This document shows positions 8,202 through 18,433 of a stretch of DNA of 64,000 bases, in pieces. The DNA lies in NCBI RefSeq assembly GCF_053078305.1, contig NZ_CP166879.1, one strand, 5' to 3'. A program made the position numbers and the translations under genes. The first letter of the stretch is position 1. Every line of letters starts with the position of its first letter. The notes under the pieces were generated by a model. It was not told the DNA's origin. It saw only the letters and a list, made by a program, of their open reading frames with translations, and ran no database searches.

Positions 8202-8875
8202 TGGTTGCCTCCTTTGCGAAGCTGGGCAGCAAAGTCAACTAACCACTCAGTCATTTCAACCTTCCCTATCAGGTCTGAACCAGGGTGCATACAGCAATCA
8301 CTCTGCGCCGCTTTGAAATCCTTATACTCATATTCTTGGGCCACCAGATTTTTTGCAGCTTCTATAGCAGCATCCACCCCCAGCGCCCGCACTTCAGACA
8401 GGAAAGCATCGGTGGCTGGCATATTTCCTGTTGCCTTCATGGCCTCCAAAATAACCAGAACGCCATCTCTCCCAACCTCCTCGCAGATAACCTCGGTGTT
8501 GTCGCCAACAACATCGCAGAATGCCTGAACTGCTTTACGAGCAAGTGCATTCTCCGCCGCCAGCGCCACAAGATTAGCTTCCAGCTCGGCAATACGTTTG
8601 CTTTGGGCTTCCCGTTCATCCAGCAGTGCCTGTACTACTTCAGGGTTGAAAGCTGCAATAAATTCTGCGTTGTTCTCTGCATTTTTCTGGTCATCAAAGC
8701 CAGGCCATTTGATAATGTCTCCGCAACGTTCATCCCCCGGCGTATGCACCGCATATGTATCAGTGCCCGGCGAAATGAATGCGACCCATTCGCCCTGGGT
8801 TGCCAGTTTTGCTATCTCACGTAGCGTCTGATAATTAATTTTTCTCACTGGTTGCCTCCTGGAAAATAACCGCAT
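8198..8875 (-). CDS. Ead/Ea22-like protein
   Basis: 225-aa ORF with central coiled-coil-like segment. Confidence 0.5.
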   Translation of the reverse strand: MRLFSRRQPVRKINYQTLREIAKLATQGEWVAFISPGTDTYAVHTPGDERCGDIIKWPGFDDQKNAENNAEFIAAFNPEVVQALLDEREAQSKRIAELEANLVALAAENALARKAVQAFCDVVGDNTEVICEEVGRDGVLVILEAMKATGNMPATDAFLSEVRALGVDAAIEAAKNLVAQEYEYKDFKAAQSDCCMHPGSDLIGKVEMTEWLVDFAAQLRKGGNQ

Positions 8876-9140
8876 GTCCCAGTTTCTCCGCCAGTGCCAG
8901 TTCTGCCTTAGCGCCTGCCGACCGCTGCCAGCCTTTCAGCATATAAACCGCATCCACACAACGAATCATTGCCATGCAAATATCCATGTACTGCGGCTGA
9001 GTCAGCCCGTCCGGAAGTACTGCCGGGTTTAAAACGGTATGCCCTTCCCGTTTCAGTGCTTCTTCCGCCCTGTGAAATGCCTCGCGGTTGAAATTTTCAT
9101 ATCCCGTCATTGGACCGGCGATATAAATGCTCACCCTCAC
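8835..9140 (-). CDS. DUF4406-like (nucleoside 2-deoxyribosyltransferase-like fold) protein
   Basis: 101-aa [16 protein letters not shown]...; small Rossmann-like protein common in phages. Confidence 0.45.
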   Translation of the reverse strand: MRVSIYIAGPMTGYENFNREAFHRAEEALKREGHTVLNPAVLPDGLTQPQYMDICMAMIRCVDAVYMLKGWQRSAGAKAELALAEKLGHAVIFQEATSEKN

Positions 9141-9541
9141 GCCTGAACCCTCCTGTCGAAATAAACGTAGTTATTCACTATGCGCAGCGGCATGCCTAAT
9201 TTTCTGGCAATTTCCCTTCTTTGCATGCCTCTCTGATGCAGTTGCCGCGCCAGCTCAATATCACGCTGAGAATATTTTGCTGACTGGTGATAATCACCCC
9301 GTAACATCATGCTGATACCCAGTTCCCGCGCTTTCGTCCTGACGGCTGACTCACTACGGCCAATCAGATAACCGATGCTTTCGACTCTCATCGTTCCCGC
9401 ACACTGCCGGAGTATCAGGATTTCAGCCCAGCTCCACTTCTTCCAGCCACTCACCGCTGCTGCCCTCTGGTGGCCGTAATATCCCGGAGAATATCCCTGT
9501 GTTTGTTCAGTTCCCGCAGCGCAGCACAGACTCGCTCCCAC
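9137..9541 (-). CDS. Hypothetical HTH-containing protein
   Basis: 134-aa ORF with sigma-70 region-4-like segment ([21 protein letters not shown]); start uncertain because of 91-nt overlap with upstream ORF. Confidence 0.4.
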
Positions 9542-10245: not shown

Positions 10246-10908
10246 TCAAATAAAACCAGCTGCCTTCCGGCGTTCGTATTCCTGTTTCAGCCGTTCAATT
10301 GGCGTTGGCCCTTGCGGGTGTTTCGCCCCTTCCAGTTGTCGTCGCACTGGCGGAACACTCATCCCGTTACCAACATGCTTTGCCCATTTCGTCAGTTGCC
10401 GTTCCGCAAGTCGTTTTAACTCACCCTGCGTCATCTGGCGCTCAATCCCTCTGGTACGCATTTCGAGGCAGATGTGGTACAGCACAGGCTGTGGCCACGG
10501 GTATTTATCACTCCCGTCGTATCGCCAGGATTCATTGCGCCAGCGCCGGTACTCTTCCATCACGGCATCCACCGTAAGACCAAATGGATTTGCCCCACTC
10601 TCCGAAATCAGCGCAACAAACTCAGCCAGGTCCGGGGGCCACGTTTCACCCGCCCGACAGCGGTCCATGCACTGACGGCAGACCTGCCGGATTTGCTGTT
10701 CAGTCATCGCACCAATCTGGGCAATCCAGAGCTTCGAAGGTGCGGCCCCGTTCTTCTGAGTCCAGCGGTTCGAATACACCTCCCCCATAAGCTCCCACAG
10801 CTTCCAGGCCGTTTCCGTTGCTGATAAATCCGTTGTCACGTTCCCACTGTTCGCGTGCTGCCCGGATTTCCTGAACTGCCCGTGATGCCGTGCCACCTGA
10901 TGCTGCAT
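10246..10908 (-). CDS. Replication protein P-like (helicase loader); start uncertain
   Basis: 220-aa ORF resembling lambda P in the segments I recall; no Walker motifs; 209-nt overlap with the O-like gene suggests a later start (ATG at 10788 or 10707). Confidence 0.5.
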   Translation of the reverse strand: MQHQVARHHGQFRKSGQHANSGNVTTDLSATETAWKLWELMGEVYSNRWTQKNGAAPSKLWIAQIGAMTEQQIRQVCRQCMDRCRAGETWPPDLAEFVALISESGANPFGLTVDAVMEEYRRWRNESWRYDGSDKYPWPQPVLYHICLEMRTRGIERQMTQGELKRLAERQLTKWAKHVGNGMSVPPVRRQLEGAKHPQGPTPIERLKQEYERRKAAGFI

Positions 10909-11710
10909 GGCTTACCCCCTTGCTGACTGGTTTTACCTGTGCCCTGACGTGCTGCACGTGGCGGGCAAATTTCTGCTCCCACTGAACCTGCGTGAAAACC
11001 TTCCCCTCCGCCATCCAGTAATCCCGGAATGCGACAAGCTCAGCAGGTGTAAATTCCGGCTCAGGCAGAGCCATACCCCACACTGCTGCCCGTTGTCGAA
11101 AATCCGGCGACGGCTGCCAGACAGTGGTCATCGAAAATTTCCCGATCGGTTCGCTCAGGCCGTCCAGGTATTCAGGTTCGGCTGTCTGCAACGGCGCACC
11201 ATGCAACTCACTGGTCGGAATACTCTCGCGTTCACGCACGTTATGTGTGGGGTTTAATTCTTTTAGATCTGTATCTTTATTAGTTGCTTTTGTGTTTGCG
11301 TCATGTTCAAACACAACACCAACATTTGTTTGAACACCTGTTAAATCTCTCTCTTGTTTTGTTTGAACATATACTTCCTTTCTGCTTCTTCTGGCCTGAA
11401 CAGATGCTTTTCCGGCGGCTGATTTTTTGGTCAATTTTTCCCTGACTGATGCCAGATCTTCCTCAATCCGAAGATGCACCCATTCATCGCCGTTATCGCA
11501 AAAAAACTCACGCAAGGATGGTTCCACATCAGCCCATCGCTCGTTAGTCAGACGGGAAATTTTTGCCAGCCTGTTTTTAGGTATTGGTTTCCCTGTTTGC
11601 CAGTAATTGAACATCAGCAACAAATACGCACCGTGCTCCTCTGCGGACAAATGCATGGTGTCAGCCAGGTAATCAGCTATGTACAGTTGCATGTATGGTA
11701 ATGCGGCCAT
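10700..11710 (-). CDS. Replication initiator O-like / YdaU-like (DUF1376) protein
   Basis: ATG at 11710 gives MAALPYMQLYIADYL... N-terminus; iteron-like repeats lie inside the coding sequence. Confidence 0.6.
   Translation of the reverse strand: MAALPYMQLYIADYLADTMHLSAEEHGAYLLLMFNYWQTGKPIPKNRLAKISRLTNERWADVEPSLREFFCDNGDEWVHLRIEEDLASVREKLTKKSAAGKASVQARRSRKEVYVQTKQERDLTGVQTNVGVVFEHDANTKATNKDTDLKELNPTHNVRERESIPTSELHGAPLQTAEPEYLDGLSEPIGKFSMTTVWQPSPDFRQRAAVWGMALPEPEFTPAELVAFRDYWMAEGKVFTQVQWEQKFARHVQHVRAQVKPVSKGVSHAASGGTASRAVQEIRAAREQWERDNGFISNGNGLEAVGAYGGGVFEPLDSEERGRTFEALDCPDWCDD
11300..11372. repeat. Putative replication origin iterons
   Basis: Three copies of TGTTYRAACA (11304-11313, 11327-11336, 11361-11370) followed by AT-rich DNA, inside the O-like gene. 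Confidence 0.4.
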
Positions 11711-11796
11711 AATTGCCTCATCTTGTGACGAACCATCCTCTGGTGATATTCTGTGATTCCCCAATCAACAGAATCAGCAGGGGGCTGGCATAAATA

Positions 11797-13056: not shown

Positions 13057-13416
13057 TTATAATCCAACCAGGCTTTCCAGGGGGATACCAAATTGATTAT
13101 GAAGACGGCGAATCATTGGTAACGTAAGGCTTCTGGTACCATTCAACACCTCATAAACCCGATTTTTTTTCCCAATTGCGGGTTCCAAATCTTTCACAGT
13201 CAGCCCCTGCTGTTCCATGCGAAATCTTATAGCTTCAATTGGGGATGGTGGCTCAATGGGATAATGTTTTTTTTCATATTCCTCTATTAGCAAACACATC
13301 ACCTCAAAAAAATCCCCCTCAGGCGTGTCAATTTCGGGCTCATTGTCGAACATGGGTTCAACAGCACGCAACGCGGCTTCATAATCTTGCTCTGTACGAA
13401 TAGGTTTGATGTTCAT
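13057..13416 (-). CDS. higA: HigA-family antitoxin (C-terminal HTH)
   Basis: 119-aa ORF; C-terminal HTH LTLPMIRRLHNQFGIPLESLV resembles K-12 HigA; directly follows the toxin gene (toxin-first order typical of hig loci). Confidence 0.8.
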   Translation of the reverse strand: MNIKPIRTEQDYEAALRAVEPMFDNEPEIDTPEGDFFEVMCLLIEEYEKKHYPIEPPSPIEAIRFRMEQQGLTVKDLEPAIGKKNRVYEVLNGTRSLTLPMIRRLHNQFGIPLESLVGL

Positions 13417-13418
13417 GC

Positions 13419-13721
13419 TTACTCCAGTTCGATGGTATCAGCATCAATAGCATCGTATTCCTTGTGGTTTCCGATGAATTTAACAAATACCCATCCTCGC
13501 TGATACGCAATTGCAACAATTAAACGGTAATGATTACCTTTTATGTTGAATACCACGCGCCGGTTTTTCAATATACTGGCCGTTCGGTATTGTGCCTTAA
13601 TGTCTGCTGGGCTTTTCCAGTCAGCTTTTGCCGCCTCATCCACCCATGCCCTTAGCGGTTGTTCTGCATCAGGATTCTCCGCCCAAAAATCCCTGAGTGT
13701 TTTAACTGAGATAATCTTCAT
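13419..13721 (-). CDS. higB: HigB-family toxin (RelE/ParE superfamily mRNA interferase)
   Basis: 100 aa from ATG 13721 (track ORF extends to TTG 13766); C-terminal FIGNHKEYD motif as in K-12 HigB; 2-nt gap to higA. Confidence 0.75.
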   Translation of the reverse strand: MKIISVKTLRDFWAENPDAEQPLRAWVDEAAKADWKSPADIKAQYRTASILKNRRVVFNIKGNHYRLIVAIAYQRGWVFVKFIGNHKEYDAIDADTIELE

Positions 13722-13764
13722 AACTGTATAGTAGTCCCATTTTGGGACTGATGCAACAGCTCGC

Positions 13765-13819
13765 AATTACAAATTTAATAATAAACATGTTGACCAGTTA
13801 AATTTTAATTTGTAAATTG
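13765..13819. promoter_or_regulatory. Putative oL operator region, overlapping the presumed higBA promoter
   Basis: AATTACAAATTTAA ... TTAATTTGTAAATT inverted arms, same core as the oR motif. Confidence 0.35.
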
Positions 13820-15994: not shown

Positions 15995-18433
15995 ATGAGC
16001 ACTGATAAAGAAGAATTTTCGCTATATTGCGAAGCAAAAAATGACAAGGTCAGAAAACGCCTTGGGATTAAAGGAGGTTTTTACTGGACTACAGCAAAAA
16101 AATTATCTGTTGCCATCTCACGGTGCGTTGTTGCAATGGACGAGGCAGGCTACGACGCTGATGATTTCAAAAAACCTGTCCGCGTCCATTTCCCCGTTGT
16201 GAATGACCTTCCACCGGAAGGCGTGTTTGATACCGAATTCTGCAACCGCTATGAAAAAGGCGGGGAAGATGGCATCACAATGATATTTATAGCGCCTTCC
16301 CCCTCAGTTCAGGACAAACCAGCCAGCACTGACAATACCAACGTCAATGGCGAAGACATGGCTGAGATTGAGGATAATATGCTCCTGCCGATTTCCGGTC
16401 AGGAACTGCCCATTCGCTGGCTTGCGCAACATGGCAGCGAAAAACCGGTAACGCACGTTTCACGGGAAGAACTTCAGGCATTACATATCGCACGAGCTGA
16501 AGAACTGCCGGCTGTTACTGCCCTGGCTATTTCCCACAACACAAAGCTGCTCGACCCGCTGGAGATTCGCGACCTTCATAAACTGGTACGCGACACAGAC
16601 AAAGTTTTCCCTAATCCCGTTAATTCCAGTCTGGGGTTAATGACTGCTTTTTTCGAAGCATACCTGGACGCTGACTATACCGATCGAGGTCTGCTGACAA
16701 AAGAGTGGATGAAAGGAAATCGTGTTTCTCGCATCACCCGCACGGCTTCCGGTGCAAATGCCGGTGGCGGAAATAAAACCGATCGTAATCCTGACTTAGT
16801 ACACACCCTCGATACTCTGGATGTGGAGGCTGCAGCAGCCACACTTCCGATGGATTTTAATATTTATGAAATACCCGTGAGCGTTTATCGTCGCGCAAAA
16901 GAAATCGTCCTGAAAAAAGAAAGTCCGTTCAGGGAATGGTCCGCAGCACTTCGCGCAACCCCTGGTATCCTGGACTATTCCCGCGCAGCTATTTTTGCAC
17001 TTATCCGGAGCGCCCACCCTGAGTTTTATCACTACCCGGGACGCCTTCAGGGGTATATCAATGCCAACCTGACAGAAACTGATCACGAGAATCCCACAGC
17101 TGAAACGCTCATGGCTGCCCGGCATACACCGGAAAAAGATATCCTGGAAGAAATTAACGGCGGACTGGCTGCTGAGTGCAAAACAGAAGAAGAAAAAAAT
17201 GATGAAGAAAACCCGCAACCATCTGGCGCAATGGCAGATGAACAGGCAACGGCTGAAACAATGGCAGCGGATACAGTTGAACATCATCAGGACCCGCAGC
17301 CGCTGGATGACAAGTCACAGGTAAAAGTTACTGCTGAAGAAGTAAATAAAATTATGGAGGCAGCAGACATCAGTCGACCAGATGCCGACAAATTGCTTGC
17401 CGCTTCTCGTGGTGAGTTTGTTGAAGGGATTAGCGACCCGAATGATTCGAAATGGGTTAAGGGGATTGAAACCTGCGATTCTGTGAACCAGAACCAGCAA
17501 GAAACGGAACAGAACGGTCAGAAAGCGGAACAAAACAGCCCAAATGCGTTACAAAACGAGCCAGAAACGAAACAACCTGAACCAGTAGTGCAACAGGAAG
17601 AGGAAAAAGTTTGTACCGCATGCAATCAGACTGGTGGTGGTAACTGCCCTGATTGTGGCGCAGTGATGGGGGACGCAACCTACCAGGAGACATTCAACGA
17701 AGAAAGCCAGGATGAAGCCCGGGAAAAAGATCCGGAGGAAATGGAAAGTGCCGGACTCCCGAACAAGGAGTGCACCGAAGGCGATCAACATGCCAATGGC
17801 AATAATGAAACAGGCGAGACAGCAAATCCCTTAATTAAGGTGAACGGTCATCGTGAAATCACATCCACCAGCAGGTTATGGCACCATCTGATGATTGACC
17901 TTGAAACAATGGGCAAAAATCCTGACGCACCAATAGCCTCAATAGGCGCTGTATTTTTCGATCCACAAACCGGAGAGCAGGGGCCTGAATTCAGCAAAAT
18001 AATTGATATGGGTACATGTGGCGGCACTGTAGACATAAGCACCATCGAATGGTGGCTTCAACGCTCTGGCGAAGCCCGTGCCGCCATTTTAGCTGATCGA
18101 ATACCGCTTGATGATGCGCTTTTACAATTACGGGAATTTATAGACGAAAACTCCGGTGAGTTTTTTGTTCAGGTCTGGGGAAATGGAGCCAACTTCGACA
18201 ACGTGATTTTACGCCGTTCATATGAACGGCAGGAGATCCCCTGCCCGTGGCGTTACACCAATGATCGTGATGTAAGAACGATTGTTGCCCTGGGGCTGGT
18301 GATGGATTTCGATGCTCGAAGTGTCATCACATTTGAGGGTGAACGCCATAATGCCCTGCACGATGCGCGTTACCAGGCAAAATACGTTTCAGCTATCTGG
18401 CAAAAACTGTTCCCGAATCAGGCTGATTTTTAA
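15995..18433 (+). CDS. Large protein with C-terminal DEDDh-type 3'-5' exonuclease domain, central acidic low-complexity region and zinc-ribbon-like Cys cluster
   Basis: 812-aa ORF with RBS; Exo I MIDLETMG, Exo [14 protein letters not shown], Exo [16 protein letters not shown]; [16 protein letters not shown]; sits between Rha module and xis/int. Confidence 0.6.

Follow-up and report, generated by a model that had tools for sequence, protein, structure and literature searches.

A DUF4406 gene in the early-right operon of an E. coli prophage

What might a protein of only 101 residues, placed among the replication genes of a prophage, do to nucleotides? The question is raised by an open reading frame (ORF) on the minus strand of the window, the whole stretch of 64,000 nucleotides that was analysed; the initial annotation had named no strand for it. 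The ORF list gives its bounds as exactly 8835..9140 (minus strand, 101 codons encoding 101 aa; the stop codon is counted in). The minus-strand start region, as read from the sequence, is AGGAGGG-TTCAGGC-GTG, in which a strong Shine-Dalgarno sequence (AGGAGGG; 9148..9154, minus strand) is located 7 nt before the GTG start codon (9140-9138). Further, this GTG lies on the TGA stop codon (9139-9137) of the upstream HTH gene, as indicated by the sequence and the ORF ends. The resulting GTGA overlap (9137..9140, minus strand) suggests that the translation of DUF4406 is coupled to that of the HTH gene. The 306-nt gene is also present in the RefSeq annotation of the closest genome (WP_001563022.1, 96% identical), and 1218 of the 5426 complete E. 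coli genomes carry the gene, annotated as "DUF4406 domain-containing protein". Because the Shine-Dalgarno sequence is strong, the start is coupled, the gene is present in so many complete genomes and its family is large, we regard the ORF as real, an accessory gene carried by a Rac-like/lambdoid prophage of E. coli. As an object the gene is ordinary, already catalogued and very common in E. coli prophages.

The gene is located in a nin-like stretch of a PR-type early operon, with replication genes on one side and Q on the other. The gene order on the minus strand is cro-like regulator, YdaT, DUF1376/DnaT replication protein, P-like, DUF1627, HTH, DUF4406, ead/Ea22, DUF551, DUF968, RusA and Q antiterminator. 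This order, running from the cro-like regulator through the replication genes and DUF4406 to Q, confirmed the early-right operon in which the initial annotation had placed the gene. Both flanking genes are co-oriented with DUF4406. The upstream gene (9137..9541, minus strand) encodes a small HTH DNA-binding protein ("LygF"-like) and is shorter in its RefSeq version (282 nt). The downstream ead/Ea22-like gene (8198..8875, minus strand; Pfam Ead_Ea22, E = 2.6e-26) overlaps the 3' end of DUF4406; when its start is taken from the RefSeq annotation in L001, which corresponds to window position 8848, the overlap is 14 nt. Judging from the sequence, DUF4406 is probably co-transcribed and translated with the rest of the operon.

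Family membership and predicted fold

The initial annotation had identified the product as DUF4406-like and had suggested a nucleoside 2-deoxyribosyltransferase (NDT)-like fold, and both proposals were borne out. Pfam PF14359 (DUF4406) matched with E = 1.3e-36 (125.3 bits vs. a cut-off of 22), and residues 4-93 were aligned to profile positions 2-91 of 91. A weak match to PF05014 (Nuc_deoxyrib_tr; E = 0.0036) remained below the gathering score (17.8 bits vs. 28.8), and PHROG 355 "nucleoside 2-deoxyribosyltransferase" matched at 7.9e-47. The family assignment is thus well outside what chance would produce. When a profile was searched against PDB sequences, the matches included T. brucei NDT (E = 1.2e-4), BlsM (5e-3) and MilB/BcmB (0.02-0.07), with Glu80 aligned to the catalytic Glu. 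A profile was needed to detect these relatives; the single-sequence search of the PDB returned only chance matches, such as that to Mediator subunit 29.

The AlphaFold model (pLDDT 93.7) exhibited the NDT-like alpha/beta fold and, together with structural matches, supported the suggested assignment. It was superimposed on DUF1937, MilB, NDTs and DNPH1, which have a three-layer alpha/beta fold, with a TM score of only ~0.5 when normalised by the length of these targets (137-165 aa). The closest structural neighbour was DUF1937/PA1492 (PDB 1T1J; 18% identity), which adds no mechanism because the function of DUF1937 is itself uncharacterised. The protein ends ~8 residues past the last strand, and the C-terminal segment of NDT and DNPH1 (~50 residues, about a third) is absent. 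According to the model, the protein is a minimal member (~90-residue core) of the N-(deoxy)ribosyltransferase-like superfamily.

This fold assignment was already implicit in the Pfam matches of a catalogued DUF gene that roughly one in five complete E. coli genomes possesses. The gene matters only because its family is huge (~12,000 clusters at 50% identity, E <= 1e-3), is carried nearly exclusively by phages and includes no characterised member; the literature on DUF4406 consists of three passing mentions, among which we found no assayed member. Twenty homologues of greater length (200-358 aa, with long extensions at the N or C terminus) contained no second Pfam domain; their extra length is probably due to run-on gene calls or to extensions that are themselves uncharacterised. 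Some actinophage homologues are labelled "deoxycytidylate deaminase" or "MazG-like pyrophosphatase"; each of them consists of a single domain (about 122-126 aa) and is not a fusion, and the two labels are likely misannotations.

Conserved residues and comparison with characterised relatives

Residue conservation was determined as column counts over 75 diverse homologues (alignment A1, down to about 42% identity). Gly9, Phe22, Ser74, Gly76 and Glu80 were invariant and are all present in the query. Position 6 was occupied by Tyr in 64 and Phe in 11 homologues (85% Tyr), position 12 by Thr in 52 and Ser in 17 (92%), and Gly13 was found in 70 of the 75. Position 63 was Asp in 54 and Glu in seven homologues (81%), and thus Asp63 is not invariant.

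These residues fall in three places. Tyr6-Ile-Ala-Gly9-Pro-Met-Thr12-Gly13 (codons 9102..9125, minus strand) forms strand 1 and the glycine-rich loop in the hhalign register with human DNPH1. Asp63 (codon 8952..8954, minus strand), a candidate general acid, aligns with Asp80 of DNPH1 and, in the T. brucei deoxyribosyltransferase, with the Asp found in the CDAVIA strand. Ser74-Ala-Gly76-Ala-Lys-Ala-Glu80 (codons 8901..8921, minus strand) constitutes an S-x-G-x-x-x-E motif, in which Glu80 is the predicted nucleophile and Ser74 the predicted 5'-phosphate ligand. The motif aligns with SPGTHVE of BlsM/MilB, DCGTAFE of T. brucei NDT and S98-x-G-x-x-x-E104 of DNPH1. Further, Tyr6, Asp63 and Glu80 align with the catalytic residues of the T. 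brucei and Leishmania NDTs. The catalytic Glu is therefore conserved, and the loss of catalytic residues, which the initial annotation had named as evidence against its proposal, was not observed.

DNPH1/Rcl is a 2'-deoxynucleoside 5'-phosphate N-hydrolase (PDB 4FYH, 2KHZ, 8QHQ), whose Tyr24, Asp80, Ser98 and Glu104 are aligned to Tyr6, Asp63, Ser74 and Glu80 of the query. The hhalign match is weak and not significant (E = 0.097); its register is the same as in the alignments to NDT and BlsM, which are significant. The DNPH1 loop Tyr24...Gly27-Ser-Ile-Arg-Gly31, whose backbone binds the 5'-phosphate, is aligned to the Tyr6-Gly13 loop of the query (PMC3834327). In rat DNPH1, Ser87, Gly89 and the backbone of residues 18-20 contact the phosphate, and the hydroxyls of the sugar are held by Glu93 (PMC3834327). 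The identity between the metazoan and the prophage protein is ~22%, and Arg30 of DNPH1 is replaced with Thr12. In DNPH1, Ser117' and Met119' of the C-terminal helix reach into the active site of the partner subunit (PMC3834327), whereas the 101-aa query has no equivalent segment.

The CMP and hydroxymethyl-CMP N-glycosidases MilB, BlsM and BcmB possess Phe at the site of Tyr6, which admits ribose, and Arg23, which contacts the phosphate and the hydroxymethyl group, where the query has Thr12 (PMC10603095). Tyr24 of DNPH1 corresponds to Phe17 of MilB, and the F17Y change in MilB leads to the use of deoxyribose; the phosphate is bound by S98 in DNPH1 and S97 in MilB (PMC10603095). These enzymes are about 160-190 aa and originate from antibiotic pathways, unlike the 101-aa prophage protein.

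NDT/PDT enzymes (PF05014, EC 2.4.2.6; PDB 2A0K, 1F8X, 6EVS) have the Tyr, the Asp and the Glu nucleophile in common with the query and gave the best profile and Foldseek matches. However, the Asp of their D-x-G-x-x-x-E motif, which binds the 5'-OH, is replaced with the invariant Ser74, and the C-terminal segment that enters the active site of the neighbouring subunit is absent from the query, which is about two-thirds the length of NDT. An Asp-to-Ser change reportedly turns NDT to nucleotides, as in the designed phosphodeoxyribosyltransferases of Kaminski and Labesse from 2013. Ser at the position of the 5'-OH-binding Asp is common to DNPH1, MilB, BlsM and the query (alignments; PMC10603095), and the 5'-OH site is occupied by Asp/Asn in transferases and by small uncharged residues in hydrolases (PMC12884076).

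The superfamily also provides a phage precedent, DmtZ, for which both hydrolysis of dAMP as an N-glycosidase and transfer of deoxyribose-5-phosphate were demonstrated experimentally (PMC12884076). This protein, encoded by Z-genome actinophages (sequence from Gordonia phage Ghobes, AOE44404.1), possesses the Tyr6/Glu103 triad and a Thr six positions before the Glu. The similarity to the query is remote and confined to the region of the Glu motif (hhalign E = 0.15 over 50 columns). DmtZ is 161 aa and is linked to PurZ0/DutZ genes, whereas no such genes are located near DUF4406 in the window.

Predicted activity on deoxynucleoside monophosphates

Because Ser occupies the site of the 5'-OH-binding Asp and the C-terminal third is missing, the residues favour cleavage of dNMPs by an N-glycosidase over base exchange by a nucleoside transferase. 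The roles in nucleotide salvage or base modification suggested in the initial annotation would need to be adjusted accordingly. On the basis of sequence comparison we tentatively propose, with somewhat less than even confidence, that the DUF4406 protein acts as a dimer on 2'-deoxynucleoside 5'-monophosphates, either as an N-glycosidase or as a phosphodeoxyribosyl transferase. The protein would form a homodimer and bind the monophosphate such that Tyr6 selects deoxyribose and the 5'-phosphate is held by Ser74, Thr12 and the Gly9-Gly13 loop. Glu80, helped by Asp63, would attack C1' and expel the base, leaving a covalent deoxyribosyl-5-phosphate enzyme intermediate that would be resolved by water (hydrolase) or by another base (phosphodeoxyribosyl transferase). 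Such an enzyme may trim or sanitise the dNMP pool during phage replication, and its preferred base is possibly a modified one. Several points count against this reading: the alignments to DNPH1 and, still more so, to DmtZ are statistically weak, Asp63 varies within the family, Ser74 could alternatively hydrogen-bond a 5'-OH, and hydrolysis of dNMPs without selectivity would cost a replicating phage its precursors. Further, the pocket may be built differently because the C-terminal ~50 residues are missing. The residue pattern nevertheless provides a concrete hypothesis that is cheap to address biochemically, that is, an N-glycosidase specific for deoxynucleotides in which Glu80 is the nucleophile.

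DNA methyltransferases near DUF4406 genes

The same prophage encodes two DNA methyltransferase ORFs downstream of Q, one at 2103-3161 (N6_N4_Mtase, E = 5.8e-44) and one at 790-1725 (weak N6_Mtase match). The initial annotation had taken them as making DNA-modification biology plausible. This suggestion stood in part: the two ORFs are present and methyltransferases adjoin DUF4406 in other phages, but those in the window are 5.7-8 kb from the DUF4406 gene. Further, we saw no indication in this analysis of a hypermodified base in the phage DNA.

In the viral contigs of other phages, the genes that directly adjoin DUF4406 on the same strand include DNA methyltransferases from four Pfam families (PF00145, PF05869, PF02086 and PF01555). 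Methyltransferase and DUF4406 genes often overlap by 1-4 nt, and one lineage possesses methyltransferases on both sides. Locus L072 carries a D12-DUF4406-C5 cassette, and phage N15 has the pair gp57-gp58. The neighbouring methyltransferases were classed by Pfam, with C5 and Dam-like enzymes kept apart and the D12 class added after locus L072. No adjacent methyltransferase was present in 113 of the 123 DUF4406 loci obtained in unbiased scans, and, when the C5 class was tallied, none of the 38 loci of the window's clade had an adjacent C5 methyltransferase. Of the scans of viral contigs, the one with P0237 as seed yielded no loci and the one with a Rhizobium phage seed only two. Three distant DUF4406 representatives were located on contigs of 1-2 kb, which contained no informative neighbours.

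The recurrent coupling suggests a biological setting for DUF4406 function. The position of the genes (adjacency, same strand and overlaps) raises the idea, which we consider unlikely, that DUF4406 proteins are functional partners of phage DNA methyltransferases and either destroy methylated deoxynucleotides (m6dAMP, m5dCMP, m4dCMP) before their re-incorporation or protect the phage from methylation-sensing defences (type IV restriction, retrons with NDT-like effectors). The methylated deoxynucleotides would come from methylated DNA, and the process would be a bacterial-virus analogue of pool sanitation by DNPH1. The gene in the window would then be a free-standing copy that serves the two distal methyltransferases of the prophage or the host Dam/Dcm. 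If the link is true, DUF4406 would represent a new component of phage DNA-methylation/anti-restriction modules, possibly the microbial counterpart of DNPH1 pool sanitation.

Alternative explanations

A true nucleoside 2'-deoxyribosyltransferase, swapping bases between deoxynucleosides for salvage, is what PHROG 355 and many GenBank labels imply, and NDTs were the top Foldseek matches, T. brucei NDT was the best PDB profile match and the Tyr/Asp/Glu triad is in common. Base exchange between dA and Z has further been shown for some phage NDTs (bioRxiv 10.1101/2025.10.22.683976). However, the database labels rest on homology transfer, the PF05014 score is below the cut-off, the 5'-OH-binding Asp has given way to Ser74 and the C-terminal part with which NDT completes its active site is lacking, and we therefore regard this activity as distinctly unlikely. 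The very small size of the protein and the loss of the C-terminal active-site elements would also suit a non-catalytic protein that has kept only the fold and serves as a ligand sensor, a scaffold or a regulator, and the closest structural neighbour (1t1j) is likewise uncharacterised. Such a role is quite improbable: even in relatives of only about 42% identity, the nucleophilic Glu, the Ser/Gly motif and the glycine loop are strictly conserved, as is usual where a site is catalytic or binds a ligand.

The methyltransferase neighbours bear on two further possibilities. They belong to four unrelated families whose only common chemistry is the conversion of SAM to SAH, and many of the pairs overlap by a few nucleotides, as might be expected of a helper of SAM-dependent DNA methylation. 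Such a helper could partner the methyltransferase directly or, as an S-adenosylhomocysteine/methylthioadenosine N-glycosidase, lift product inhibition. However, E. coli already possesses an SAH nucleosidase, and to our knowledge SAH activity is known for no member of the superfamily. Since, in addition, most DUF4406 genes, including that of the window, have no methyltransferase next to them and Tyr6 favours a 2'-deoxy sugar (PMC10603095), we consider this helper role very improbable. A counter-defence role in place of a metabolic one is on the unlikely side. Such a factor would remove, by hydrolysis or sequestration, an immune signal derived from nucleotides or a product derived from NAD+, or would antagonise a methyltransferase-sensing defence (e.g., retrons with NDT-like effectors). 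PADLOC and NCBIfam models gave no match at E <= 0.01 to known anti-phage defence or anti-defence families. A "glycosidase" of phage Bas51 co-triggers retron Asa1 (PMC12548924) and was considered as a candidate DUF4406 protein; the idea found no support, as Bas51 was not among the six Escherichia DUF4406 phages in the matches listed (Rac-SA53, 689R5, D6, PhiR46_1, YDC107_1 and N15; ten Escherichia records counted). Consistent with counter-defence, the gene is located in variable accessory regions of temperate phages, and DNA methyltransferases, with which it is repeatedly juxtaposed, are anti-restriction genes. Retrons are triggered by phage Dcm and Dam methyltransferases, and the effector of Ec86 is NDT-like (bioRxiv 10.1101/2023.08.16.553469; PMC12548924). 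This Ec86/Eco1 effector carries the same superfamily label as DUF4406, and the Dcm-type methyltransferases that trigger its defence are of the kind that adjoins DUF4406 in other phages. Further, in one gut-phage lineage, a gene of the Tad3 family (anti-Thoeris) is located within two genes (<=2) of DUF4406.

Identification of the DUF4406 Gene

The open reading frame at 8835-9140 of the window is located on the minus strand and comprises 101 codons, the first of them GTG; the N-terminal residues of its product are those reported in the initial annotation. It is preceded by a strong ribosome-binding site (AGGAGGG at 9154-9148, minus strand; AGGAGGG-TTCAGGC-GTG), and the GTG shares bases with the stop codon TGA of the gene before it (GTGA), which is the usual arrangement in translationally coupled phage genes. 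Over the full length of the domain, the product matched Pfam DUF4406 (E = 1.3e-36; 125 bits, cut-off 22), and it weakly matched DUF1937 (E = 1.3e-4) and Nuc_deoxyrib_tr (E = 0.0036, under its cut-off). It is a DUF4406 member with both of the features that define the family. Further, it matched PHROG 355, labeled "nucleoside 2-deoxyribosyltransferase", at 7.9e-47. No PADLOC or NCBIfam model matched.

The same gene is named "DUF4406 domain-containing protein" in RefSeq (WP_001563022.1, 96% identical) and "rac19" in phage Rac-SA53. A megablast search of 5426 complete E. coli genomes detected it in 1218, some of which carry as many as four copies, and it is thus a very common prophage gene. A full-text search of the literature returned only three mentions of DUF4406, all in passing, and PDB sequence searches found no solved structure of any member. 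Databases already list both the gene and its family, annotated RefSeq proteins have almost the same sequence, and the assigned fold is no surprise. The remaining value lies in a more precise hypothesis, amenable to testing, about a phage family that is very large and uncharacterised, and in its coupling to methyltransferases.

The DUF4406 Gene Is Located in the Early-Right Region of a Rac-Like Prophage

The left 19 kb of the window is a Rac-like/lambdoid E. coli prophage, and the closest complete genome was 97.5-98% identical across the aligned part. The minus-strand order was cro-like regulator, YdaT, DUF1376/DnaT replication protein, lambda-P-like protein, DUF1627, a small HTH protein, DUF4406, two ead/Ea22-like genes, an unnamed ORF, DUF551, a secreted OB-fold (BOF) moron-like gene, DUF968, RusA, antiterminator Q and two DNA methyltransferases. 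The latter, which the initial annotation had noted elsewhere in the prophage, are indeed present after Q at 2103-3161 (minus strand; N6_N4_Mtase) and 790-1725 (minus strand; a weak N6_Mtase match). Consensus scans for terminators and promoters yielded nothing above shuffle expectation; the sole minus-strand terminator-like site within the stretch (10271-10255) and a promoter-like site (12549-12521) were no better than chance. From the gene order and the lack of a terminator-like site beyond chance within the stretch, "early-right operon" is therefore a fair description.

Fold and Active Site of the DUF4406 Protein

When the predicted structure of the query was compared with the whole PDB using Foldseek, nucleoside 2'-deoxyribosyltransferases (NDTs), MilB and DNPH1 were matched with a query-normalised TM of 0.70-0.77; the targets exceed the query in length by half, which limits the target-normalised TM to about 0.5. 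These structural matches assign the query, at the fold level, to the N-(deoxy)ribosyltransferase-like superfamily. Thus the NDT-like fold proposed initially was upheld. Membership as a true NDT was not, because the query scores below the HMM threshold and lacks both the Asp that binds the 5'-OH and the active-site segment at the C terminus; the label nucleoside 2'-deoxyribosyltransferase should not be applied to it.

A DUF4406 family profile searched against PDB sequences matched a T. brucei deoxyribosyltransferase (E = 1.2e-4), BlsM (5e-3), a Leishmania NDT (7e-3) and MilB/BcmB (0.02-0.07). All of these alignments paired Glu80 with the catalytic glutamate, Asp63 with the Asp conserved in the preceding strand and Tyr6 with the strand-1 Tyr (or Phe). 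Since these three residues align with catalytic positions, the loss of catalytic residues that would have counted against the initial suggestion was not seen. Among 75 family sequences, 64 have Tyr and 11 have Phe at position 6, position 12 is Thr or Ser in 69/75, position 13 is Gly in 70/75 and position 63 is Asp or Glu in 61/75.

Six residues ahead of the glutamate, the transferases possess Asp (DCGTAFE) but DUF4406 possesses an invariant Ser (SAGAKAE), which it has in common with BlsM/MilB (SPGTHVE) and DNPH1 (PSLGVGYE). In DNPH1 and MilB, this Ser is a ligand of the substrate 5'-phosphate (PMC10603095). A 2026 study drew the same distinction, with Asp/Asn for the 5'-OH in transferases and small uncharged residues in hydrolases (PMC12884076). 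In that study, DmtZ, a phage NDT-superfamily protein, was shown to hydrolyze dAMP and transfer deoxyribose-5-phosphate (PMC12884076); DmtZ and DUF4406 are only remote relatives (hhalign E = 0.15).

Human DNPH1 paired with the query at Tyr6/Tyr24, Gly9/Gly27, Gly13/Gly31, Asp63/Asp80, Ser74/Ser98, Gly76/Gly100 and Glu80/Glu104; the E-value of this profile-sequence alignment was only 0.097, and the main support for the register is that the significant profile-PDB alignments agree with it. DNPH1 Tyr24 corresponds to MilB Phe17, and F17Y shifts MilB toward deoxyribose (PMC10603095). In rat DNPH1, the phosphate is also bound by the backbone of residues 18-20 and by Gly89, and Glu93 holds the sugar hydroxyls (PMC3834327). 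DNPH1/Rcl appears nearest to the query in active-site pattern, although the query is without its second-subunit contacts. MilB-type ribonucleotide hydrolases differ from the query at the Tyr/Phe and Arg23 positions.

Building on the observed fold, invariant motif and aligned triad, our best reading, which is plausible but tentative, is a putative homodimeric enzyme acting on a 2'-deoxynucleoside 5'-monophosphate through a covalent intermediate on Glu80. The homodimer would bind the nucleotide with Tyr6 excluding a 2'-OH and with the phosphate held by Ser74, Thr12 and the Gly9-Gly13 loop. Glu80, aided by Asp63, would expel the base and become covalently linked to deoxyribosyl-5-phosphate, and this intermediate would then go to water or another base. 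We do not favor this reading more firmly because the query is without the C-terminal third, with which DNPH1 and NDTs complete their pocket, Asp63 is not invariant and a serine can bind a hydroxyl too.

Methyltransferase Genes Adjacent to DUF4406 in Other Phages

We collected 293 loci around DUF4406 homologues from viral contigs, called the genes crudely and classified the neighbors. In the query's own clade, an HTH gene lies upstream and ead/Ea22 downstream, and an adjacent C5 methyltransferase was found in 0/38 loci (the per-clade tally covered the C5 class only). In other clades, DNA methyltransferases were the most recurrent immediate neighbors, always on the same strand as DUF4406 and frequently overlapping by 1-4 nt. 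Families confirmed by Pfam were C5 cytosine (PF00145, several lineages), phage Dam (PF05869), D12 Dam (PF02086) and N6_N4 (PF01555). Phage N15 gp57 (DUF4406) is followed by the C5 methyltransferase gp58 (L086 4001-5309), and the order is reversed in Pseudomonas phage D14E. Such pairs also include the methyltransferase and DUF4406 genes at L090 1053-3025, and Dam followed by DUF4406 with an ATGA overlap (L062 3453-4291). At another locus, DUF4406 lies between D12 Dam and a C5 methyltransferase with overlaps of 1 and 4 nt (L072 3021-5418); L073 likewise has it between Dam and a C5 methyltransferase.

By gene position, each pairing of a DUF4406 cluster (80% identity) with a methyltransferase cluster was counted once in the first 250 loci, before the D12 class was added. 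The profile peaked beside DUF4406, with 12 combinations at -1 and 5 at +1. Counts were 5, 4, 3, 3 and 2 at -2 to -6; there were 2 at +2, 1 at +3 and 0 from +4 to +7. These counts are to be read with the caveats that two scans were seeded from loci picked for a methyltransferase neighbor, near-identical contigs recur, the gene caller is rough and accessory genes of temperate phages cluster regionally. In scans seeded regardless of methyltransferases, one was adjacent in 10/123 loci; these are 10 of the 19 loci with any methyltransferase. None was adjacent in D6, phiKO2, Vibrio phage Pel or four actinophages. The association is a real but unproven lead, and a true functional partnership is improbable.

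The association is compatible with removal of methylated dNMPs, relief of S-adenosylhomocysteine (SAH) inhibition, an anti-defence cassette or shielding from methylation-sensing retrons; one such retron, Ec86, has an NDT-like effector that phage Dcm triggers (bioRxiv 10.1101/2023.08.16.553469; PMC12548924). A counter-defence protein, directed at nucleotide signals (NAD+-derived or other) or at defences that sense methylation, would suit this setting and is unlikely. The same neighbors would suit an SAH/methyltransferase helper, which we regard as most improbable. A true nucleoside transferase, to which the fold and the PHROG label would point, is quite doubtful with Ser in place of the 5'-OH-binding Asp. 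A non-catalytic protein would fit the missing C-terminal third and is very unlikely with the catalytic residues retained.

Variants and Labels of DUF4406 Proteins

Single-domain DUF4406/NDT-like actinophage proteins bear the labels "deoxycytidylate deaminase" or "MazG-like pyrophosphatase" (L083 2977-3345; L084 2974-3354; L085 3004-3372; L301 9693-10178), and DmtZ of Gordonia phage Ghobes (AOE44404.1), experimentally a dAMP N-glycosidase, carries the GenBank label "deoxyuridine triphosphatase". These actinophage labels are likely misannotations. Pseudomonas prophage versions (L090 2489-3025; loci L172-L227) are 178 aa long, with a conserved C-terminal extension of ~85 residues that contains cysteines (EPDFVCKC, SDNDPFVC) and has no Pfam match. 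The version of Escherichia phage D6 is 203 aa (L302 2986-3597). In gut and marine phage contigs (L255-L299), the 41 dereplicated neighbors within two genes of DUF4406 included one match each to anti-Thoeris Tad3, a dATP/dGTP diphosphohydrolase N-domain and dCMP deaminase. On visual inspection, the protein that immediately follows DUF4406 in L276/L277 resembles another NDT-like protein (YLIGSLRN ... KSGHMEI).

Other Features of the Prophage

The closest complete genome carries, between its two ead/Ea22-like genes, a hypothetical gene of 330 nt (L001 7136-7465) that is absent from the window (~8198), indicating mosaic turnover of the region. The nin-like region is interrupted by the BOF protein, which has a signal peptide (6225-6569; Pfam E = 3e-33), and by a small hydrophobic ORF (6691-6903); together (6225-6903) these look like a moron. 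The longest ORFs of the P-like (10246-10908) and DUF1376/DnaT (10700-11764) proteins share ~200 nt. The RefSeq versions are shorter with a small overlap, and the mechanical ORF starts of both replication genes are therefore probably too far upstream. Beside the immunity region lie, within 13057-13766, a HigB-family toxin gene (13419-13721) and an HTH antitoxin-like partner (13057-13416), named from the RefSeq annotation of a near-identical locus. Further, an 812-aa exonuclease (15995-18433) has an exodeoxyribonuclease VIII (RecE-like) region at its N terminus and an Rv2179c-like 3'-5' exoribonuclease domain at its C terminus.
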